Shown here: piece by piece, positions 2,901 through 63,850 of the stretch
Layout of the letters: the number at the start of each line of letters is the position of its first letter
Position numbering within the stretch: the first letter of the stretch is position 1
Assembly (NCBI RefSeq): GCF_006345805.1
Contig: NC_043009.1
Span: 60,078,001 to 60,142,000, forward strand
Reading direction: 5' to 3'
Length of the DNA stretch: 64,000 nucleotides
From: Octopus sinensis
Taxonomy: Eukaryota
Program-made: the position numbers and the translations under genes
The notes under the pieces: model-generated
Told to the model about the DNA's origin: nothing
The model's input: the letters and a program-made list of their open reading frames with translations, nothing else
Databases searched by the model: none

Positions 2901-2948
2901 ACACACACGCACACACATACATGCACACACACACATACACATATATAT

Positions 2949-3456
2949 AATAGTATACATTTAAACATAAGAGAAACTACCTTTAACAGGTAATTTTATA
3001 CGCTAGAAGAAGCAGTCAAAACGACCAAAACCACATTTAAGAGCAATTTCCAAGGGAATGAAAAATAAAACTTTTACCTTGTTATTTTTGGTTTACGGTT
3101 ATACCTAGATTTCGAATTCTTTAGCAAATAAAATAATTTGCTGGGCGAAATTCTCATCAGTAACCGCGCCATAACATTAACATATAATTTAGAGACAAAT
3201 GACATGTGTCTCATCATTATATGTTATAATTTTTCAGATTCACCGCGCAAGTGCAGTTTCAGTCGGTAGTAAATGGAAAATGCCGAACTGATCTTCGAAA
3301 TGCTAAGATCATATACGTGAGATATATAGGGTAGCAAATATTTTTAGAAATTTCACTACCAGTGTCCTAGCATGTATAAAAAGTCAATAGACAACATATT
3401 CTCAATATAAAATAGTGTACATTTAAACATAAGAGAAACTACCTTTAACAGGTAAT
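2949..3456 (-). mobile_element. Terminally redundant ORF-less unit (462-bp period) carrying a hammerhead; retrozyme-like or non-autonomous Penelope-like element
   Basis: 46-bp direct repeat aatagt(a/g)tacatttaaacataagagaaactacctttaacaggtaat at 2949-2994 and 3411-3456, microsatellite on both sides, hammerhead at 3096-3166. Confidence 0.75.
3096..3166 (-). ncRNA. Type I hammerhead ribozyme, apparently intact
   Basis: Minus strand: cggtta (stem I) CTGATGA gaattt-cgccc-agcaaat-tatttt-atttgct-aaa-gaattc (stem II) GAAA tctagg (self-complementary stem III) TA taaccg (stem I'). The core is canonical with a GUA cleavage triplet and a predicted cut between 3102 and 3101. Confidence 0.85.
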
Positions 3457-5353: not shown

Positions 5354-5945
5354 TTAATTGAAATGATATCTGCTAAAACATAACATATTTTCTTTAATTT
5401 TTTAAATATATTTGTGGACTCCCTGTAAAGTCACAACAAAGTCTTGTAAGACAATAAGGTGTAAGAAAAGGAAGAGTTAACCTAAGATATTTTTCTAATA
5501 TGAAGCAGTCATTACAAGTGACAGGTGTAAAGCGTCATGAGTCTTCAAACATAACCTTTTGGACAGCTGTTCTGAAAGTGCCAAAGCAGCTGATAGATGT
5601 CTTTGTTTTCTTGTTTTAATTGCCGTGCACGAATAAAAAGGTTGTGTCTATGGCCTTTCCAAGTCCTCCGAGAGCGTCAAAATAAACAACGTTACCTTTC
5701 CGCTTAATACATTGCAAGTCAAAAACTTGCAGGAGAGAGGGAATTCTAGAAAGCCGAGGCTGATTACACGGGGTGGTTAGTACAGTATTTGAGGTGTTGG
5801 AAAAAAGAAACATGCGGATAACGATATGAAGAGGGACGAATGAGTCAGGGGTGCCTGAGTAAAAGTGATAAGCCCAACCAGTTTCGATGAGCAGAAGCCA
5901 TTATAATTACTTTAGAAAAGTTGGAGAAAGAAGATAATCCATATA

Positions 5946-7327: not shown

Positions 7328-7558
7328 TTAGCGAAATATATTATTTTTTTAGTTGAGAATATTAAGAGAAATCAATATTTTGAGAAATAAAAGGAATGTA
7401 ATGAATATGAAACCATGACTGAGTGGAAAATACTTCAATAGTATTGTTGTTTAACCCAGATCACCTTTATCAGGCAGACCTATGACCAAAATCGATTTTG
7501 TTTCTGATTATACTGTCAATATTTATTTATTTATTTATTTTTTTTTAACCCTCTGGAA

Positions 7559-7972
7559 GGCGGCGAGCTGGCAGAATCGTTAGCACGCCGGGCGAAATGC
7601 TTAGCGGTATTTCGTCTGCCGCTGCGTTCTGAGTTCAAATTCCGCCGAGGTCGACTTTGCCTTTCATCCTTTCAGGGTCGATAAATTAAGTACCAGTTAC
7701 GCACTGGGGTCGATGTAATCGACTTAATACCTATGTCTGTCCTTGTTTGTCCCCTCTGCGTTTAGCCCCTTGTGGGTAATAAAGAAATAGGTCTTTCGTC
7801 TGCCGTTACGTTCTGAGTTCAAATTCCGCCGAATTCGACTTTGCTTTCATCCTTTCGGGGTCGATTAAATAAGTACCAGTTACGCGCTTTGGTCGATGTA
7901 ATCGACTTCATCTGTTTGTCTGTCCTTGTCTGTCCCCTCTATGTTTAGCCCCTTGTTAGCAATAAAGAAATA
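7559..7972 (+). mobile_element. SINE family A dimer
   Basis: Head ggcggcgagctggcagaatcgttagcacgccggg; junction aaagaaata|ggtctttcgtc at 7789/7790; second unit is 183 bp. Confidence 0.9.
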
Positions 7973-8039
7973 AGAATATATATATATATACATATATATA
8001 CACCTATATAGAAATATATATAAACATATCTATATTTGC

Positions 8040-10935: not shown

Positions 10936-11394
10936 CATGTATTATAATCTGCTACCAGGTATATAGTAACAACTACCGTGTCGTATGCTAAGAGATATGT
11001 TTCCTAGCCTTGGATATCAAAAGAGATTTTGACAGAATGTGTTTCAACGGATTCTATACCATTCTGTACCAAGTATGAATCAAAATGAACAGGCAGCCAA
11101 AACCCCTCTTCATCAATACTCACCCATCAGCCGTCATTGTATCTCTACCTGGATCATTTCTGTCTTCATTCTTCATAGATTACCGTGTGAATGCTCTGGC
11201 AATTTCTTTGTTTACTATTAAAGAAATCGACAGAAAAAAACCATTGTTGTAGAAGTTACCTTAAATGGAGCTCTTAGCAGGATGAAATGATGAAAAGCTG
11301 CTAGTTAAGCATCATATCCTGTCAGCTAAATCACAATTTTGGAAAATGTATATCGATGGACTAAAAACGTTACAATTTTTAATTGTGACCTTTA

Positions 11395-11860
11395 AGTGGC
11401 GAGCTAAGAGGATTTGTTAGTACATTGGGCAAAATGCTTAGCGAAATTTCATCTGTCTTCATGTTCTGAGTTCAAATTCCACCGAGGGTGACGTTGCCTT
11501 TCATCTTTCTGGCCTCAATAAAATAATTACCAGTTGAGTGCTGGGGTTGATTTAAGCAACAGTCTCCTTACCCACTCCACCGGAATTGTTGGCCTTCTTC
11601 CAAAATTTGAAATCAATATCTAATTGTGACCTTAAGGCTAGCAGAATCGTTAACACGCCGGGAAAACGCTTAGCAACATTTCGTCCGTCTTTACGTTCCT
11701 AGTTCAAATCCTGCCGAAGTTGACTTTGTCTTTCATCCTTTCAGGGTAGGTGAAATATGCATCAGTTGAATAGTGTGTGTATGTGGGGAGAGGTCGATAT
11801 AATCGGCTTACCCCTCCAACGAATTTGCTGGCCTTGTGCTAAAATTTGAAATCAATATTT
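11395..11860 (+). mobile_element. Two older tandem SINE family A copies
   Basis: gagttcaaattccaccgagg and agttcaaatcctgccgaag B-boxes; the first copy is flanked by taattgtgacctt on both sides (13-bp TSD). Confidence 0.75.
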
Positions 11861-12439
11861 AATGGCGACACTCTGTTCTGCTGGATTAAACTGCATCTTT
11901 TAACAGAATCTATAAAAGAAATACCAGTAATAAATTGTATACATTTCATTGGATTTTATCATTTCACCAATTTTGTAGCTTCGCATCTCGTTCTCCCCGC
12001 TCCACCACCAATAAAGTCCAATAACAATACCAATAACAAAATCGATATTTAATCGAAGTTTCTTATGCCAGTTTCACTATTCAATTTTATTGTCCAACAG
12101 TCTGTAATTCTGCGCCAAGTTTCAATTATTGTATTTATGATTTTGCATAATATGAAAATCTTATAAATTCTTTGATTCTTTTACTGGTTTTAGTCATCGA
12201 ACCATGGCCATTCTGGGGCACCACTACTAACTTCTATGACTGAGTCGAAGATTACAAATGGCTAAACTTATCTCATCAACGACAGAAGAATGGAAAGTAA
12301 ATGCAAAGGAAATCTGATCGGTTCTTGAAGAAAGAAACGAAGCAAAGCACCTCGGAGTATTTGCATTTTGTTCGACGCACTGCCGATTATGCCTTCATTC
12401 ACTTTCCTGTTTAGCTATTCAGCAAAGAAACCTTTACCG

Positions 12440-13065: not shown

Positions 13066-13651
13066 CAGACTATCAGGAAAGAAACAAAAATTATATAGGA
13101 AATATAGGAAATATATTCTTTTCTACTCTAGGCACGAGGCCCGAAATTTTGGGGGAGGGTCCAGTTGATTAAATCGACCCCCAGTGCGTAACTGGTACTT
13201 AATTTATCGACCCCGAAAGGGCGGAATTTGAACTCAGAACGTAGCGGTAGACGAAATACCTATTTCTTTACTACCCACAAGGGTAGGCGGCGAGATGGCA
13301 GAAACGTCAGCACGCCGGGCGAAATGTTTTGAGGTATTTCGTCTGCCGTTACGTTGTGAGTTCAAATTCCGCCGAGGTTGACTTTGCATTTCATCCTTTC
13401 GGGGTTGATAAATTAAGTACCAGTTACGCACTGTGGTCGATGTAATCGACTTAATACCTATGTCTGTCCTTGTTTGTTCCCTCTATGTTTAGCCCCTTGT
13501 GGGTAATAAAGAAATAGGTACTTATTTAATCGACCCCGAAAGGATGAAAGGCAAAGTCGACCTCGGCGGAATTTGAACTCAGAACGTAGCGGCAGACGAA
13601 ATACGGTTACGCATTTCGCCCGACGTGCTAACGATTCTGCCAGCTCGCCAC
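13066..13651. mobile_element. Composite SINE family A locus: minus tail piece, plus-strand copy, minus head piece
   Basis: 13066-13283 (-), 13286-13517 (+), 13517-13651 (-); the two heads are inverted copies of each other. Confidence 0.85.
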
Positions 13652-13959: not shown

Positions 13960-14332
13960 GAGGCGCAATGCCCAGTGGTTAGGGCAGTTGACTCGCGGTC
14001 GTAGGATCGCGGTTTCGATTCCCAGGCCGGACGTTGTGAGTGTTTATTGTGTGAAAACACTTAAAGTTCCACGAGGCTCCGGCAGGGGTTGGTGGCGAAC
14101 CCTGCTGTACTCTTTCACCGCAACTTTCTCTTACTCTTTCTTCTTGTTTCTGTTGTACCTGTATTTCAAAGAGCCAACTGTGTCACACTCTGTGTCACGC
14201 CGAATCTCCCCGAGAACTCCGTTAAGGGTACACGTGTCTGTGGAGTACTCGGCCACTTGAACGTTAATTTCACGAGCAGGCTCTTCTGTTGATTGGATCA
14301 ACTGGAACCCTCGTCGTTGTAACCGACGGAGT
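13960..14332 (+). mobile_element. tRNA-derived SINE family C with tail type 1 (possibly octopus OR-type)
   Basis: Head ggcgcaatgcccagtggttagggcag...ggtttcgattccc; body ccacgaggctccggcagggg...caactttctct; tail gtcacactctgtgtcac...gttaagggtacacgtgtctgtggag...ggaaccctcgtcg. Confidence 0.8.
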
Positions 14333-15625: not shown

Positions 15626-15880
15626 TCAGTAGTTTTATTTTATAGCGTGCTTTCACTTCACTACCGAGCGCAGATCTGTGTGCCTTGGGTATGTGCTGTG
15701 ATTTGTTGTGATGCTCTGATGGTTATTGTATGGAAAGTGTCTGCGTAGGATGTGCGCAGTGCCTAGTAGTGCAATTTTCTGTATGTTATATGTGTTTGTA
15801 AGTCCTGGTGTTTTGTTATGTATTTGTCCTGAATATTTTTTTATCATGCCTAATGCACCTACTATGATAGGAATTGTTTC

Positions 15881-15884
<4 letters not shown>
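15626..15884 (-). mobile_element. 5'-truncated R4/Dong-clade non-LTR retrotransposon in (TAA)n
   Basis: Minus strand encodes TETIPIIVGALGMIKK...IQKIALLGTAHILRR, typical of the R4/Dong C-terminus, followed by a 3' UTR; (TTA)n on both sides. Confidence 0.8.
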
Positions 15885-15942
<58 letters not shown>

Positions 15943-15959
15943 TTAATATTATTATTGCA

Positions 15960-16455
15960 GTGAAGGCGGTGAGCAGGCAGAATCGTTAGAGTGCCAGGCA
16001 AAATGCTTAACGTTACTTCGTCCATCACTACGTTCTGAGTTCAAATTCCGTTCTGAGTTCAAAGGTCAACTTTGCCTTTCATCCTTTTCGGGCTCGATAA
16101 ATTAAGTACCAGTCAAGTACTGAGGTTGATGTCATCGACTGTACCCCTCCCTTCAAATTCCAGGCCTTGTGTCTATAATAGAATTGATAATAATAATAAT
16201 AATAATAATATTATTAAATATAATGTAATAATAACATTATTAAATATAATGTTGTTGTAGTGAAGGCAGTGTGCAGGCAGAATTGTTAGCAGTATTTCGT
16301 CCGTCTTTACTTTCTGAGTTCAAATTCCACTGAGGTCGATTTGCATTTTATCTTTTCGGGGTCGATAATTTACGTACCAGTTGAATGCTGGGGTCGACGT
16401 CATTGACTTAAATCCTCCCCTGCACTTGTTGACCTTGTGTCAAGATGTGAAACCA

Positions 16456-17047: not shown

Positions 17048-17303
17048 TATTATTATTGTTTTTATTATTGTTATTATTGTATTTTATGTTTTTATTCATT
17101 GTAAATCTCCTATTGTTTCTTGTTTCTGCGTTTTCCTATATAAATTATGGTGGCTATTTCTTCCCTCATCAATCACCAACTGACAACTATGTTATTAGAA
17201 ATCATCACCACCTTTATCATCATCATCATCATCTTCACCATCAATGTAATCATCAACTAATTAGTTGTTCAGCTTTTGGTTTGTAAAATATTTCCTGTAT
17301 TAA

Positions 17304-17921
17304 GGCGGCGAGCTGGCAGAACCGTTAGCACGCCGAGCGAAATGCGTAGCCGTATTTCGTCTGTCACTACCTTCTGAGTTCAAATTCCGCCGAGGTCGAC
17401 TTTGCCTTTCATCCTTTCGATAAATTAAGTACCAGTTACGCACTGGGGTCGATGTAATCGACTTAATCCGTTTGTCTGTCCTTGTTTGTCCCCTCTGTGT
17501 TTATCCCCTTGTGGGTAGTAAAGAAACAGAAATAAGTATTTCGTCTGTCTTTACGTTCTGAGTTCAAATTCCGCCGAGGTCAACTCTACCTTTTATCCTT
17601 TCGGGGTCGATTAAATAAGTACCAGTTACGCACTGGGGTCGATATAATCGTCTTAATCCGTTTGCCCTCTGTGTGTTTAGCCCCTTATGGGTAGTAAAGA
17701 AATAGGTATTTCGTCTGCCGTTACGTTCTGAGTTCAAATTCCGCCGAACCGACTTTGCCTGTCATCCTTTCAGGGGTCGATAAATTAAGTACCAGTTGCG
17801 TACTGGAGTCGATCTAATCGACTGGCCCCATTCCACAAAATTTCTGAACTTGTGCCCAGAGTAGAAAAGAATATATTTCCTATATTTCCTATATAATTTT
17901 TGTTTCTTTCCTGATAGTCTG
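17304..17921 (+). mobile_element. SINE family A trimer with extended 3' flank
   Basis: Head unit plus two headless units starting gtatttcgtctg (~17536, ~17705); the last unit has the short tail plus a 64-bp block shared with 13066-13129. Confidence 0.88.
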
Positions 17922-18669: not shown

Positions 18670-19076
18670 CACAGACTCACTGGAGTCTTGGGAATTTGTT
18701 CCGGCTCTCTGTGCTCTGAGTTCACATCGTACTGATTTCAGCTTTACCTTTCCACCTTTCGTATTAATAATAGAGCACCATACTGGTGTTTCATTGACGG
18801 AGCAGTAGAAGATCAAAGTGATGCCTCATGTGTTTCATTCGGGTTTGTGCAATCACTTTCAAATCTTGGCTCATGACACCGGCAAAACTGTGATAGGCTT
18901 GGGAAGACCTTCATCAATAACCCAGTATTTCGGAGCCGTATATATATATATATATTATATATATATATATGGAGAGAGAGAGAGAGAGAGAGAAATACAT
19001 CACTATAAAATATACGTCGTGCTGAATCGAGGAAAGTAAGCTAACAGAATTTAAAAAAAAATTTTAATGCGTTATA

Positions 19077-19131
19077 TCTGTACTGATTAATTTCGGGATT
19101 AATCCAACGCATTTTTTGCCTCATCAGCAGA
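19077..19131 (-). ncRNA. Type I hammerhead ribozyme (copy 1)
   Basis: tctg CTGATGA ggcaaaaaatgcgttggattaatccc GAAA ttaatcag TA caga; core intact, stem III imperfect. Confidence 0.7.
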
Positions 19132-19581
19132 GAATACGGTATGAAATCAGTGAAATACAAGCACCCATGGAAAAAAAACAGAACCAAAAGTCATGTGTAC
19201 ACATAAGTACCCCAGATATATCCAAATAAAAAATTCCGTAGCGAACCTCAGCACACGTGTAATCGGTCAGGAACTACAACTTAGAGAGATCACCAGTCCC
19301 GAAGTGAATGGTAATAAATCTACTTCTAATATAGGATAAAATTTTTTCAAAAAATTTCATCAAGTGGCCAGCATATCAAAATACCTTTTAAGGTGAAAAT
19401 TATAAACAATTATAAATTATAAATAAGGGCAAAACAAAAAAATTCTATGCCAATGTGCTGAGTAATAAACTTTAAATAGTCAATTACCACATACAAATAT
19501 GCATCACTATAAAATACATGTCACGCTGAATCGAGGAAAGCAAGCTAACAGAATGGTTTTTTAAAAAAGAAGCGATATATA

Positions 19582-19636
19582 TCTGTATTGATCAATTTCG
19601 GGATTAATCCAACGGATTTTTCGCCCCATCAGCAGA
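19582..19636 (-). ncRNA. Type I hammerhead ribozyme (copy 2)
   Basis: tctg CTGATGG ggcgaaaaatccgttggattaatccc GAAA ttgatcaa TA caga; perfect palindromic stem III; core has A9>G. Confidence 0.65.
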
Positions 19637-19850
19637 GAATACGCTTTAAAAAAATTCTGTTAGCTTGCTTTCCTCGATTCAACACGGCATGTATTTTATA
19701 GTGATGTATATTGTATGTGGCGATTGACGATTTAAAGTCTATTTCTCAGCATATTGCCATAGAAATTTTTTCTTTTGCCGTTATTTCTAATTGCATACAC
19801 ACACCCACACATATATATATAGAGAGAGACAGAGACAGACAGACAGTGAG

Positions 19851-23290: not shown

Positions 23291-24017
23291 ACATCTGGCC
23301 TCGCCAGTGTTCGTTAATACATACAATATATATATATGGAACGTCTTGAATTCGTTATATGTTAGATGAATTGCTTGAAAAAGAAATGCTGACAACTTTG
23401 TGATCGTCTGCCAATTTTCACTTAGATTATTTGTGAGAATATATAAAATTTAAAAGTCTGTTTGAATTGAGCTTCATAAAGACTTGCAAACGAAGTAAAC
23501 AGACACAAAACCTAAAATATATATAGTTTTGTAAATTGCTGAAGAACATGTTTTCTTCCCCTCCCCCAAATACTGTTGTAATTTATATAATTAGTCTAAA
23601 TTAATTATTTTCTTAATTAGTAACTTTTCTAGCGTCTATATTCTTTGTATTTCTGTCTGGAGTTGAAATAAATGAATTTTATACTGTTTCTAACACTGAG
23701 AAAAAGTAAAAACAAAGCGTAAACTTGAGAACAGTGGAAAAAACAATGATTCCAAATTGATTTCAGCATTTCCACACTTAGCGCAACCTGTCAAAATTCT
23801 TTCAATGATGCTGAGCATGTAACATAATTATTATTTGAGAGTATGTACCACGCTTTTGTAGGTTGTTCTTGGTGCCTATCTAGTCGCGTGCGTGCATGGA
23901 CATCCTTTCGATGGTTCTTCCCTCGGTGTAGGTGAACTGTGAGGATGTGACCGCTGAAGAGACATAAGACTGCATTAGCACTCGGCCCGAACTCAGTTTT
24001 AGCTGAGTAGACTGGTA

Positions 24018-24323
24018 GTGGAGGCACATGGCCTAGTGGTTAGAGCAGCGGACTCGCGGTCGAGGGATCGCGGGTTCGAATCTCAGACCGAGCGATGTGT
24101 GCGTTTATGAGCGAAAACAGCTAAGCTCCACGCGGCTTCCGGCAGAAGGTAATGGCGAACTTCTGCTGACTCTTTCGCCACAACTTTCTCTCACTCTTTC
24201 CTCCTGCGTCTTGCAGCGCACCTGCGACGGACCGGCGTCCCGTCCAGGTGGGGAACCTAAACCTCAAGGAAACCGGGAAACAGGCCCTTATGAACCAGTC
24301 ATGGCTCGAGAAGGAAGGAACAA
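24018..24323 (+). mobile_element. SINE family C with tail type 2, flanked by 171-bp direct repeats
   Basis: Head gtggaggcacatggcctagtggttagagcagcggactcgcggtcg...gggttcgaatc; tail ctgcgacggaccggcgtcccgtccagg...; repeats at 23847-24017 and 24324-24494. Confidence 0.88.
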
Positions 24324-24607
24324 ACCACGCTTTTGTTGGTTGTTTTTGGTGCCTATCTAGTCGCGTGCGGGTATGGCCATCTTTTCGATGATTCTACCCT
24401 CGGCGTAGGTGAACAATGAGGAATTGGCAACTGAAGAGGCACAAGACTGCATTAGAACTCGGCTGGGACTCAGTTTCAGCTGAGTAGACTCGTACGGCGT
24501 GAAACGAACTGATTTTCTCAAGGACATAACGCGCCACCCAGTCCAAGAATCGAACCCGTGACATTATGACCGTTTGAAGAACATCGTAACCACGAGGCCA
24601 TGCCTCT
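24324..24607 (-). mobile_element. Old CORE-like SINE (target of the family C insertion)
   Basis: Minus strand gaggcatggcctcgtggttacg...gggttcgattc (tRNA head), tgtccttgagaaaa, gtctactcagctg. Confidence 0.6.
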
Positions 24608-24680
24608 TTATATGCATCAGGCAATTACACACACACACACACATACTCGCACGCGCACGCGTGCACCCCCCCCCACATTT

Positions 24681-25278
24681 AATGGATCCAATACAACAAC
24701 CATAAACGTTCAGCACAATGCTTGGACAGAGACGAGCCACCAAAACACAGTCCGAAAACAAAATTCATCAAAAGAAGCTGATGGTGTGTGTTTGGTGGTC
24801 TGGCGCAGGTGGGATCCATTATGATTTCATTAAACCTGGCTCATCAATCACGGCCGAAGTATACTGCGTCCAACTAGACCAACTGATGCAGAAACTTACT
24901 AAAAAAAACAGCCCAGATGAGTAAACAGATCCACTCCTATTTTATTGCAAGACAACGCCAGACCACACATCGCAAAAATGACATTGGCGAAACTACAGAA
25001 TTTTGCTCCCACTGACTACCACTTCTTCCAGAATCTATATAACTTTATGGTATGAAAAAGTTTAATTCCGACGATGTTGTAAAACATGCCTTCCATGATT
25101 TTATTGACTCTAGCTTGCCAAGCTTTTACAGTTCCGGGTTGGACAAGCTACCGCTGAAATGGGAAAAGTGTATTGACAATATGGGTGCATACTTTGATGA
25201 ATAAAACTATTCCTTGTATTTTTAAAACACGAGCAAAACGCCCCCCGTCCAATGGACGGTGCTGAGTTGTCAAACATA
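24681..25278 (+). pseudogene. 5'-truncated mariner transposase pseudogene with 3' end of the element
   Basis: WIQYNNHKRSAQCLDRDEPPKHSPK/IHQKKLMVCVWWSGAGGIHYDFIKPGSSITAEVYCVQLDQL/VNRSTPILLQDNARPHIAK...FAPTDYHFF...GLDKLPLKWEKCIDNMGAYFDE* (stop at 25204). Frameshifts; the HPPYSPD segment is deleted. Confidence 0.92.
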
Positions 25279-28484: not shown

Positions 28485-29119
28485 GCCAATGGATCTTTTA
28501 TCGACTCGTGTCATTCATTCCTTTAGTAGGTTATTAATGCAAACAAGGAACTTCGCATGAAATCTTGTTGCGAGCTATGCTGTGAGCTCTTTTTCAGCCG
28601 TCACCTGTTTCTGTTTGTTCACAAGCGATTCTGAGAAATGGCAGCATTCCAATTTTTAGCAATCTTCCCGCCAGTAATAAATTAATCCGATTAAGCAACA
28701 AGAAAGCGATATACATTGAAATCTGTCTGTTTCCGTAAACTGTAAAATGGAATACTCAGCAGTTGATGAAATTGCAAAGCAAGATTGAAACTTAACTCGG
28801 TAATCCCCCTTTTCTAACCACAGAGATTCTGTAATTGTTAATATACGTCTGTCTATACGTAGTACAGTGCTTGCAAAAATCTATATGTATATTGCGTAGT
28901 AGTACAGTACAGTATTCATATAAAAACACTGTGACGCCACTATATATATATATATAATTATATAATAATATATATATATATATAATCAATAATAATAAAG
29001 GGTAAAATTAATTAATCAATTTATAATAATAATCTTCCAAGTAGTTCGGTGTCTTAAAAGAACTATTATCGGTAAATTTATAAAAGAATTATCATAATTA
29101 TAAACATAATTATATTTAA

Positions 29120-29256
29120 GGTTTAGCAAAATTGCTTCACCACATACCGAAATTTAGAAATAGCAGTTAAATACTATTCTACGTCTTATTGTAGTGGAAT
29201 AGTATTTAACTGGTATTTCTAAATTTTGGTGTGTGGTGAAGCAATTTTACTAAACC
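29120..29256. repeat. Long inverted repeat (63-bp arms, 11-nt loop)
   Basis: 29120-29182 versus the reverse complement of 29194-29256 differ at 5 positions. Confidence 0.92.
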
Positions 29257-29295
29257 CTAATGGTCGCAGTCAAAATGACTGAAACAAGTAAAAGA

Positions 29296-33975: not shown

Positions 33976-34541
33976 CACACACACTCACACACACATTCAC
34001 AGATCATATACATATATACATATGAATAAATATATTCATATATATACATATATATAGACACTCGTGTAAGAATATATATGTATATATGCGTGTATATATA
34101 TTTTTACCGCGCAATATATATGTGTGTGTGCGTGTATATATATATTATACATCTATATATTATATATATAATATATATATATATATTATATATATATATA
34201 TAATATGCGTGGTGTGTATGTGATCTTTGCAAGTAATTCTATTTCAGTGTGTGTTCGTATTTAGAGGGTGGTGTGATGTCTTATTACGTGCGTACTCGTA
34301 CGCTTACATATATATTTACATCATTATACAAGCATATATATATATTAGTAGTTTTATATTTCCTTTCAAGAGGTCTCACGTTTTACAAATCCATTTCAAA
34401 GCTATTATTATTTCTATAACCCAGACTAATTTTTTTCTGAAAACTCTTTCAACACCATACATATATATTCAATTCTATTATTCTGTTATTCTATTAACAG
34501 TTTAAGCTAATGGCTGGGGCAATGCTGGGACACCGCCATTA

Positions 34542-34779
34542 CTCTTTTACTCTCTTTTACTCTTTTACTTGTTTCAGTCATTTGACTGCGGCCATGCTGG
34601 AGCACCGCCTTTAATCGAGCAACTCGACCCCGGGACTTATTCTTTTTTGTAAGCCCAGTACTTATTCTATCGGTCTCTTTTGCCGAACGCTAAGTAACGG
34701 GGAAATAAACACACCAGCATCGATTGTCAAGCAATGCTAGGGGGACAAACACAGACACACACATACATATATACACTCA

Positions 34780-34833
<54 letters not shown>

Positions 34834-34998
34834 TACGACAAGTTTCTTTCAGTTTCCGTTTACCAAATCCACTCACAATGCATTGGTCGGCCCGGGGCTA
34901 TAGCAGAAGACACTTGCCCAAGAGCCACGCAGTGGGACTGAACCCGGAACCATGTGGTTGGTTAGCAAGCAACTTAAAAACACAGCTACTCCTGCGCC
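34542..34998 (-). mobile_element. SINE family B, full length, flanked by ~115-bp direct repeats
   Basis: Aligns with 5946-6329; tail (gtaaaaga)n; repeats at 34426-34541 and 34998-35112. Confidence 0.9.
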
Positions 34999-35266
34999 TA
35001 ATTCTTTCTGAAAACTCTTTCAACACCATACATATATATTCAATTCCATTATTCCATTATTCTATTATCAGTTTGAGCTAAAGGCTGAGGCAATCCTGGG
35101 ACACCGCCATTAGGAATATTACTTCTTATTCTAGGCTCACTTCTCGGTCCTGTCTCTGAAATCGGTCTTAATGAAGTAACGAGTTGCACAGGGCTGCCCT
35201 TCTCTGCGTATCTTGCCGTAATATAGGTTCATCTTGTATATTAGATAAAAATTTAGCTAATTTATA

Positions 35267-38249: not shown

Positions 38250-38425
38250 ATGAGAGAAAGTTGTGGCGAAAGAGTCAGCAGAAGTTCGCCATTACCTTCT
38301 GCCACAACCGCATAGATCTTAGGTGTTTCGCTCATAAACACACTAATCGCCCGGTCTGAGATTCGAACCCGCGATACCCTCGACCGCGACTCCGCTGCTC
38401 TAACCACTAGGCCATGTGCCTCCAC
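38250..38425 (-). mobile_element. SINE family C head and body, 3'-truncated
   Basis: Reverse complement matches 24018-24192. Confidence 0.85.
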
Positions 38426-38555
38426 TATGTATGTATGTATGTATGTATGTATGTATGCATGCATGCATGTATGTATGTATGCATGTATGTGTGTATGTAT
38501 ATATGTATACACATGCATGTAGATAGCTAGATAGATTTAGTTATACTGGACTGGC

Positions 38556-38876
38556 ACTTCGTCGTATACGACGGCGAGGGTTCCATTTGATCCGTCCAAC
38601 GGAACAACCTGCTGGTGAAATTATCATGCAAGTGGATGAGCTCTCCACAGACATGTGTACCCTTAACGTAAGTCCTGAAGGTGATTCAGTGTGACACAGA
38701 GTGTGACAAGGCTGGCCCTTTGAAGCACAGGTACTACTCATTTTTGCCAGCTGAATGGACTGGAGCAACGCGAAATAAAGAGTTTAGCACAAGTACGCAA
38801 CGCATCGCCAGGAGTTGAACTCACAATCTTACGATCATCAGCCGAATACTTTAACCACTAAGCTACGCAACTTCAC
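38556..38876 (-). mobile_element. CORE-like SINE carrying the same tail as the family C copy at 13960
   Basis: tRNA head gtagcttagtggttaaag...gagttcaactcc; ttgctccagtccattcagctggcaaaaatgagt; tail gtcacactctgtgtcacactgaatc...gttaagggtacacatgtctgtggag...ggaaccctcgccgtcg. Confidence 0.75.
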
Positions 38877-38892
38877 TTCAGTTATACTATTG

Positions 38893-39308
38893 TATTTCTT
38901 TACTGCCCACAACAAGCTAAACATAGCGGGGACAAACAAGGACAGACAAAGGGATTAAGTCGATTACTTTGACTCCAGTGCGTAACTGGTACTTTATTTA
39001 TCGACCCCGAAATGATGAAAGGCAAAGTCGACCTCGGCGGAATTTGAACTCAGAACGTAACGACAGACGAAATACCTATTTCTTTATTACCCACAAGGGG
39101 CTAAACACAGAAAGGACAAACAAGGACAGACAAACGGATTAAGTCGATTACATAGACCCCTATGCGTAACTGGTACTTTATTTAATCGACCCCGAAAGGA
39201 TGAAAGGCAAAGTCGACCTGGGCGGAATTTGAACTCAGAACGTAGCGGCAGACGAAATACCGCTAAGCATTTCGCCCGGCGTGCTAACGTTTCTGCCAGC
39301 TCGCCGCC
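38893..39308 (-). mobile_element. SINE family A dimer with 15-bp TSD
   Basis: Junction 39076/39077; headless unit 184 bp; ttcagttat(a/g)ctatt at 38877-38891 and 39312-39326. Confidence 0.9.
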
Positions 39309-39677
39309 TAATTCAGTTATGCTATTATACTATGTGTGGGTGTCTATGTGTATATGTGTGCTTGTGTGTTCATGAGTGCATGTGTGTGTGTTTGTGTGTG
39401 GTTTTGTGTCTAGAACCGCTGCACTTCATCCACTGCTTGTGGAAACAAACATCCTCATTATATATTTAAATTCATGTTAGTTTCGGAAACAAACTGAAAA
39501 AAAAAAATTGTTTTCATTTATGCTCTGTATTTTACGTCAAATCAACAGCACTTACACTACAACGACCAAAACGAACAGCACAACAATGAGAACAACAAAA
39601 ACACCAGCAACAACAACAGCGAAAATAGCAAACATAATAACAATAGCAACTACAACTTACAAAAGAAGAAAAAACGA

Positions 39678-39777
39678 NNNNNNNNNNNNNNNNNNNNNNN
39701 NNNNNNNNNNNNNNNNNNNNNNNNNNNNNNNNNNNNNNNNNNNNNNNNNNNNNNNNNNNNNNNNNNNNNNNNNNNNN
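39678..39777. other. Assembly gap (100 N)
   Basis: Run of n. Confidence 0.99.
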
Positions 39778-39857
39778 AACCTTTGCACCTAATCACATAC
39801 AGAAGCAAAGATATCAGTTTTCCGGCTTTATATTGCAGCCTGCATATATATATATAT

Positions 39858-62079: not shown

Positions 62080-63850
62080 TTCTATGAAGAAGAATATCCA
62101 CAAAGCATCTGACAGGATCGACACAAGATGGTCAATTATTAAAGTGGGTATCATCAGAATAATGCAGTGGAAAGTGTATTTTCACAACCACTAAACGATT
62201 TCACTAAAATCTATGTTCATGTAAACATCTAAAACTAACCACCTTGGATTCAATTATTCCGTAACGCTGAAGCAAAACCCTTAGAGATACCTTGGTCGTT
62301 AAGATTTTTTAAAATATTGTAATGATTTCCAAGAAATACTGTAATCAGACATCATAACTTTTAAGAACTCTAACGAAACCTTCACATTTTAAGACAAGAT
62401 GAAACATTTATACAAATTCTATGAAGACGGGATATGCTATCAAAAAAAGAAAACTCTCAAAATTACAGAAAATTTAACTCAAATACCTATGGTGATATTT
62501 ACTATAAAGCAAAATAAATATCGTGGCACCAAATTTATATAAGGAAATGCAGTGCTTAACGTACTTTTTGTTTAACTCTTAAGAACAACAAGAATATCAG
62601 TAGAAAACATAGTGCAGGCTAATAAACCTTGTCAGAGTGAGCTTGCATAAGTTAGCAAACACTGCATTACTGATATATTTCAACGATACCACCAACTGCA
62701 AATTTACCCAATTCGATATTGTCGAATTCTAGCCCTCACTTTCAAAGACACGCGTTACAAGGACCTTGAAATTTGGAAAGGCGTTTTACGACATTACGCA
62801 TACCAACTGTCGCTAATTTTTATCAATAACTCATAGAAATATTTCGTTAACTCAACAAATGAAAAAGAAGCCTATGAAGGAATCCATAGATTAAAGGATG
62901 TAACCTGCTTTCTCTTCAGTTTTTCCCTACTCACCAGTCAAACGGAATTTTAATTTTGAAATTTACGTACTTGTTCGTCTGAATGAATTGTGATATTTTG
63001 TAACTGAAGCTTTCTATCAGGCTATCAAGCATTGGTGTTCACAAGAACTCGATGTATTCAATTTCTATCTCCACTTATTAAAACGATATGATAAACGTCG
63101 CCCTTTTCAAGCCTAGCTAGGCTCATGGGCCCGGTTTTCCGGTTTCTGTGGCGTATGTGTTACCCCAGCTGGACGGGACGCCATTCCACCGGGCGTTGTG
63201 TATGTTTATTGAGCGAAAACACCTAAAAAAACTTCACGAGGTTCCGGCAAGGGGTGGTGGCGACCCCTGTTGTACTCTTTCGCCCCAACTTTCTCTCATT
63301 CTTTCTTCCTGTTTCTTGAGTAATGCTGGGGGGAACACATACTCCACAAAAACCGGTTAACCGGGCCCATGAGCCTGGCTAGTCTTGAAAAGGGCGAAAA
63401 GAAAAGAAAGAATATGGTTTATTAGACCATTACAGTAAATCTAACATTACCAAGAATTTCTTAAACCTAATTTAAAAATAATTTGAATGAGACACAAATA
63501 TTCCAAATTGTTCAATCAGATATATTTATTAGTTATCGTGACAAAGAACAGAATGTACGGAATATCGTGGCATTTAGTAAGAGCCTTTACTACCAAAGAA
63601 TTTCAGAGACTCGGTGAATAAATCGTCAAAAAACCATGAGAATAATACAAGATGTAAACCGACGCTTCAGAGGACATAAACTACAACTGCTAAAGTAGAA
63701 GGTTATGTACTTTCAGTGACTTATGTAAGACTGAAACTGTAATTTAGTTAGCCATTGTTTCCGTTCCCAGAGATACAGAACCTCCGATATGGTATATCAG
63801 AATACGCGAAGGTAGTCTCAAACGTCAGTAGTTAAACCAAAATTCCACAT
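62080..63850 (+). pseudogene. Decayed Penelope-like RT/GIY-YIG ORF, interrupted by a SINE fold-back
   Basis: IIRIMQWKVYF (cf. IKRMRWKAFF), NDFQEIL*SDI...DKMKHLYK (cf. ADKTxNLY), LTLKNNK (cf. ITLKDHK), CRLIN/QSELA*VSK, CKFTQFDIVEF*PSLS (cf. FDIxEFYPSI, ~62697-62745), then SNITKNFLNLI*K*F...KYSKLFN (~63440-63515). Confidence 0.8.
63099..63396. mobile_element. Fold-back made of an inverted SINE C tail plus a headless SINE C body and tail
   Basis: Arms 63099-63169 and 63325-63396 are inverted copies; the centre matches the family C body. Confidence 0.8.

Follow-up and report, generated by a model that had tools for sequence, protein, structure and literature searches.

A 171 bp direct repeat around an Octopus sinensis SINE, probably a long target site duplication, and a shorter counterpart in the same 64 kb

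Results

Organization of the 171 bp locus

The stretch of DNA analysed here, hereafter the window, is 64,000 bp of microsatellite- and SINE-rich animal DNA from Octopus sinensis (assembly GCF_006345805.1, contig NC_043009.1, positions 60,078,001 to 60,142,000, forward strand). It contains a 306 bp SINE of a family we call C, placed between two copies of a 171 bp direct repeat that also belong to an older SINE on the opposite strand (Table 1). The two repeat copies align without gaps and are identical at 147 of 171 positions (86.0%; BLAST E 2e-54 in a self-search of the 64 kb window), and their 24 differences, 13 transitions and 11 transversions, correspond to a K2P distance of 0.156 +/- 0.033. 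The distance from repeat to SINE edge is 0 on both sides, with a single ambiguous base (24018 = 24495 = A) that can be assigned to either repeat or SINE and gives a repeat length of 171-172 bp. The original prediction, which had both copies abutting the SINE, was exact in the coordinates, length, ungapped state and number of substitutions of the repeat, and close in its identity of ~85%; the direct repeat flanking the family C SINE is confirmed as a real feature. Neither BLAST nor a profile of the two copies (next match E 0.97) found a third copy in the 64 kb window, the span within which single-copy status of this piece of an older SINE was judged. Runs of T4 and T5 start 8 and 20 bases inside copy 2, so transduction of this copy by Pol III read-through is unlikely under the terminator rule given in section 11 of PMC4758252. 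The segment 23847-24612 gave no blastn match to a plasmid collection.

Table 1. Coordinates in the window of the features at the 171 bp locus, the second locus and the related family C copy.
Feature	Position	Strand	Basis
Older SINE, possible terminal bases with short TAA-type tail; to the left of repeat copy 1	23825..23846	-	by eye; fold z -1.63; weak
Repeat copy 1, probable upstream TSD for family C; holds body plus tail of older minus-strand SINE	23847..24017	+	alignment, BLAST
Family C SINE: tRNA-like head, body, tail ending GAAGGAAGGAACAA	24018..24323	+	sequence, BLAST copy
Family C Pol III A box	24029..24039	+	read from sequence
Family C Pol III B box	24073..24083	+	read from sequence
Repeat copy 2, probable downstream TSD; T4 at 24331-24334, T5 at 24343-24347	24324..24494	+	alignment, sequence reading
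Older SINE, tRNA-like head and start of central domain; A box ~24590-24600, B box ~24546-24556	24495..24610	-	continuous with copy 2; profile match
Left copy of 115/116 bp direct repeat, adjoins family B 3' tail	34426..34541	+	self-comparison, anchored scan
Family B SINE with tRNA-like head, a microsatellite inside it and a tail built of GAGTAAAA-type repeats	34542..34997	-	sequence, alignment
Right copy of 115/116 bp direct repeat, adjoins family B head	34998..35112	+	self-comparison, anchored scan
Other family C copy, 5' part; sister in clock test; without long flanking repeat	38251..38425	-	BLAST, flank scan

With A and B boxes and dispersed copies set in different flanks, the family C SINE has the properties of a tRNA-derived element. 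Its 5' 176 bp are 92% identical to the copy at 38251-38425, the flanks of which differ, related heads lie at 13960 and 63188, and the window holds one full-length copy of the family. No intact tRNA was found within the element by ARAGORN (0) or Rfam, and Rfam returned 0 matches at the gathering score over the whole window, together with 3 chance matches near the locus. A search with the translation of the element did not find protein relatives of near or greater length. A V domain in family C was considered and dropped when alignments of bivalve V-SINEs gave no support. Two exact-pattern scans of a contig collection without eukaryotic genomes found 0 loci for the motifs of family B and of families C/D. 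The SINEs of the window presumably resemble in sequence the octopus SINE OK as well as OR1, OR2 and the CORE-SINEs. The families in the window have tRNA-like heads, central domains in common and exchanged tails, an organization like that of the octopus tRNA-derived SINEs OR1 and OR2 and of the CORE-SINEs, families named in PMC4824008 and PMC4758252. Among the octopus transcriptome supplements of PMC9115989, the files searched held 0 motif matches. A family C-related SINE at 63098-63397 is headless, and to its left its tail is repeated in inverted orientation (arms 63098-63166 and 63329-63397, 62 of 69 positions identical); the element resembles a twin-priming or fold-back product.

The older SINE lies on the minus strand, and its degenerate head (~24610-24495) matches a tRNA-head element at 38736-38873 with E 1.8e-6 and 63% identity. 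Because this head reads straight into copy 2, the duplicated 171 bp represent the older SINE's body together with its tail, the arrangement to be expected had a single element been split. It had been proposed that the older SINE continues only after copy 2; the continuation there is borne out, while the "only" is less certain, as the element may extend for ~20 bp beyond the left end of copy 1, where a short tail of TAA type was picked out by eye, a weak likeness. Tail folds were uninformative. To the right of the locus, 24706-25204 hold a broken mariner transposase fragment (PF01359, E 2.4e-18) that matches a SETMAR-labelled bee protein at 73%.

A second long repeat, around a family B SINE

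Self-comparison of the 64 kb window detected a second case, in which a 115/116 bp direct repeat adjoins both ends of a family B SINE (Table 1). The two copies differ by 9 substitutions in 115 aligned sites and by 1 indel. The 55 bp of this repeat that lie beside the tail weakly resemble the family B tail (E 0.03-0.1), so both long repeats overlap remnants of older SINEs, and about half of the family B repeat is non-repeated DNA. This locus, new in this analysis, is a cleaner twin of the 171 bp locus.

Frequency of long flanking repeats

Ends were set by hand for 30 SINE-like copies, among them fragments as well as the older SINE, and the flanks were searched for repeats anchored at these ends, ungapped to 400 bp and gapped to 1500 bp. 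Anchored repeats of more than 100 bp flank 2 of the 30 copies; plausible repeats of 8-24 bp, judged by eye with no significance test, flank 7; and the remainder have either no repeat or microsatellite matches only. When the 171 bp locus, which had been selected, is set aside, the rate of long repeats is 1/29 (95% CI 0.1-18%), the frequency being set by 2 events in all. A long target site duplication (TSD) that is intrinsic to a family should be carried by most of its copies; in family B it is carried by one of the four near-full-length copies, those at 5941, 6916 and 35263 having no long repeat. The tails of families B and C have no detectable similarity, a search with the family C tail returning no family B copy at E<5. 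With two cases in 64 kb, on elements whose tails differ, long TSDs may well be frequent in this genome and overlooked. A survey of the human genome took only TSDs of 5-30 bp, and stated that longer ones need study (PMC2912911).

Three other repeat pairs were considered as TSDs and rejected. Both copies of 15627-15855/16767-16997 lie in TTA microsatellite and are likely separate LINE ends, 18995-19146/19499-19651 belongs to a palindromic repeat, and 2943-2994/3405-3456 has no SINE in between.

Divergence of the repeats and of the SINEs they flank

If a flanking repeat is a TSD, half of its divergence should equal the private divergence of the SINE it encloses. At the family B locus this expectation fits, with 14 private substitutions in 353 SINE sites (4.0%) and 9/115/2 (3.9%) in the repeat. 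For family C, changes at 176 head sites were polarised using the sister copy at 38251-38425 with the two related heads as outgroups; this clock covers the head only, the 3' 128 bp being unscored as no other family C copy extends there. The head carries 3 private substitutions (1.7%) and the sister 9, whereas the repeat predicts approximately 12 (7.0%), a mismatch with a conditional p of 0.007 (one-sided) or 0.013 (two-sided) that would weaken to p 0.07 (k=6) had a further 3 changes been polarised wrongly. The claim that the divergence of the two copies dates the insertion therefore fails here, and the mismatch is the main result both against a simple TSD reading and against dating by the 14% divergence of the pair.

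Within the 171 bp pair, the substitutions gave no sign of clustering (P 0.29) or of a bias between strands (6 vs 7), so the differences look like ordinary drift; on these values clustered mutation and single-strand deamination were rejected as sources of the excess divergence. Its source may be chance, later conversion of the head, or an older duplication. A long TSD supplies an internal clock for each insertion, one that worked for family B and failed for family C.

Discussion

Interpretation of the long repeats

We consider the 171 bp repeat to be probably a long TSD, formed in target-primed reverse transcription (TPRT) with a second nick ~171 bp from the first, and the long stagger to be likely a sporadic outcome that more than one SINE family in this genome can show, rather than a trait fixed in family C or in a single RTE partner. 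A LINE endonuclease would have nicked the bottom strand at 23846/23847, within the older SINE, and the SINE RNA would have been copied from its 3' end at this nick, by the established chemistry of TPRT. The top strand would then have been nicked at 24017/24018 (pre-insertion coordinates), 171 bp apart from the first nick, the duplex between the nicks would have opened and both gaps been filled, after which the two copies would have drifted to the 24 differences observed. The family B insertion most likely took the same course. Models of TPRT with a distant second nick are summarised in PMC2666801 and PMC4245944. Two different tails show long repeats and sister copies do not, which makes an outcome that arises now and then more likely than one built into a single partner LINE. 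The giant TSD and widely staggered nicks of the original prediction are thus supported, and the family B case, with its fitting clock, strengthens them.

Duplications of this size belong to a documented minority class with a host-dependent rate, since L1 TSDs of >100 bp account for at most 10% of events in HeLa cells and for 57-91% in NER-deficient cells (PMC5223499), and one TSD among 25 of ZfL2-2 measured 1228 bp (PMC2666801). As in the present cases, these are non-LTR inserts with duplications of >100 bp, occurring as a minority beside short TSDs and explained by a distant second nick (PMC4245944, PMC2666801, PMC5223499). Unlike those de novo LINE inserts in cell lines, the insertions described here are old (4-7% diverged), lie in an assembled invertebrate genome, and are those of short SINEs whose tRNA-like heads are intact. 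Non-LTR elements also produce long TSDs naturally in genomes, as reported for R9 of bdelloid rotifers (126 bp) and Dualen-4b_cRei of Chlamydomonas (median 900 bp) (PMC9977147), but these are autonomous LINEs and long TSDs are characteristic of their families, whereas our elements are non-autonomous and one in four family B copies has the long repeat. The 171 bp and 115/116 bp cases would join the known >100 bp TSDs of L1, ZfL2-2, R9 and Dualen, the family B case being new here. In the open-access literature searched, most of it at the level of abstracts, we met no account of long TSDs at SINEs of cephalopods. A single long TSD would be an oddity for which precedents exist.

Alternative explanations

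RTE-clade machinery, as first proposed for this locus, draws on C. elegans RTE-1, whose TSD is reportedly ~200 bp and thus similar in length to 171 bp. The proposal is unproven. No sequence link between family C and an RTE 3' end was found, and the published TSDs of other RTEs are mostly 10-20 bp, with a peak at 10-12 bp in vertebrates (PMC4245944), lengths of 10 and 12 bp for SR3 (PMC1291365) and 20 bp for HmRTE-e01 (PMC2887409). That long TSDs are intrinsic to one such partner LINE, which mobilised both SINEs or their subfamilies, is in our view unlikely, even though RTE LINEs are reported to be active in two octopus species (PMC9115989), R9 and Dualen demonstrate that LINE-intrinsic long TSDs exist, and, by eye and not by computation, the short words CATGG, CGCA, GTC and GACTGA occur in the same order in the family B tail and at the BovB 3' end (PMC5786205 supplement). 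Short motifs of the family C tail are absent from the same RTE/SINE supplement of PMC5786205. A SINE mobilised by RTE machinery would be expected to finish in a short array of AT-rich 3-5-mers (PMC1291365); family C ends in approximately two GAAG units and AACAA, and family B in 6-8-mer GAGTAAAA-type units. Against a common partner stand the dissimilar tails, the three of four near-full-length family B copies that have no long repeat, the different repeat lengths (171 vs 115/116 bp) and the lack of a partner LINE in the window, where Pfam searches of 79 translated stretches (76 of 116 candidates plus 3 added, the 40 left out being mostly within SINE copies) found no LINE ORF, reverse transcriptase or endonuclease, the mariner transposase fragment alone passing the cut-off.

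The more diverged state of the copies relative to the SINE head would be accounted for if the repeats were not a TSD at all, and two copies of the older SINE, one full-length and one 5'-truncated, or an earlier local tandem duplication, lay head to tail and family C later landed exactly where they met, making no TSD of its own. What is duplicated does belong to a SINE, and tandem SINE insertions are present in the window (11396-11857, 38545-39310), but such an insertion would have to fall within ~1 base of the junction, both copies would have to end at the same base with copy 2 tailless and no indel in 171 bp, and no third copy of the sequence occurs in the window. The family B locus has the same anatomy with about half of its repeat non-repeated and a matching clock, and we judge an insertion at a pre-existing junction improbable. 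It is quite improbable, too, that an older insertion made the TSD and that its body was later overwritten, by gene conversion or replacement, with younger family C sequence: the difference between 1.7% and 7.0% would follow directly, yet a second event is required, no mosaic boundary is shown (the 3' part has no full family C copy for comparison), and chance combined with mis-polarisation also reaches the mismatch. We give very little credence to a TRIM-like element with the repeats as its LTRs, or to an origin by unequal crossover, for which two independent SINE insertions would have lain 171 bp apart on the homologues. A short interior enclosed by direct repeats does have the geometry of a TRIM, and in a crossover allelic divergence would add to that of the pair. 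LTRs end in TG...CA, however, and these repeats do not; A and B boxes lie between and beyond the repeats with none inside them, the other family C copy is without the repeat, and a crossover would need two rare close insertions, twice in one window. TRIMs that contain a tRNA (Helenus) are known in molluscs, but the 4-6 bp TSD expected of a TRIM is absent outside the unit (GTATGT vs ACGGCG) (PMC10886601). A TRIM-like element of the Helenus type, whose LTRs would hold the tRNA-like sequence, is largely refuted.

Candidate nick sites

Under the preferred reading of both repeats as long TSDs, the pre-insertion sites can be reconstructed. For family C both nicks would fall at TGGT^AC on opposite strands, taking the G of copy 1 at repeat position 168 as ancestral on the basis of one related element; for family B both are readable as ATT^AG. 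At random positions in the window, mirrored motifs of this kind arise by chance at rates of 0.006-0.011 (family C) and 0.044 (family B). Because the motifs were noticed post hoc, and that of family B partly overlaps microhomology with the SINE ends, we treat them as a lead only. Mirrored T^A pairs would fit, speculatively, the same endonuclease making the second nick.

A broader and rather doubtful proposal is that in this germline a few percent of SINE insertions, across unrelated tails, leave duplications of >100 bp as the LINE endonuclease makes its second nick at a distant mirror-image T^A, and that callers working at 5-30 bp missed them. If true, the genome would preserve thousands of nick pairs with wide spacing, a natural record of how the second strand is cut in TPRT. 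With nicks so far apart the sequence preference of each could be read separately, on a step that PMC4245944 and PMC5223499 leave unsettled. A genome-wide count of nick pairs could separate the same endonuclease from a random host nick.

Other features of the window

Family A SINEs at 403-824, 7555-7975, 38893-39310 and 17302-17872 have two or three tandem tail units of 184-185 bp. Identity among the units of one copy is 78-89%, and for two of the copies this is approximately the level seen between copies, which may reflect repeated re-initiation on the template. Two SINEs of different families stand in tandem at 38536-39329, bounded by three copies of a 12-18 bp target motif, and a similar tandem pair occupies 11373-11869. 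An inverted pair at 13068-13283 and 17682-17919 (83% identical) runs past the SINE end into common flank, suggesting a transduced flank or a small duplication.

Repeated fragments embedded in TTA microsatellites (15627-15855/16767-16997, 97%; 16522-16689/22321-22486, 90%) may represent the 3' termini of a LINE that, like Dong, targets microsatellites; 15656-15985 had no Pfam match. The window includes an assembly gap of 100 N at 39679-39778. At 18995-19780 a direct repeat of ~155 bp (81%) borders on a palindrome, and the whole has the look of a DNA transposon end in decay. A 52 bp direct repeat (96%) surrounds 410 bp of non-SINE DNA at 2943-3456, and a palindrome was seen by eye at 29040-29260; both could be Penelope-like ends.
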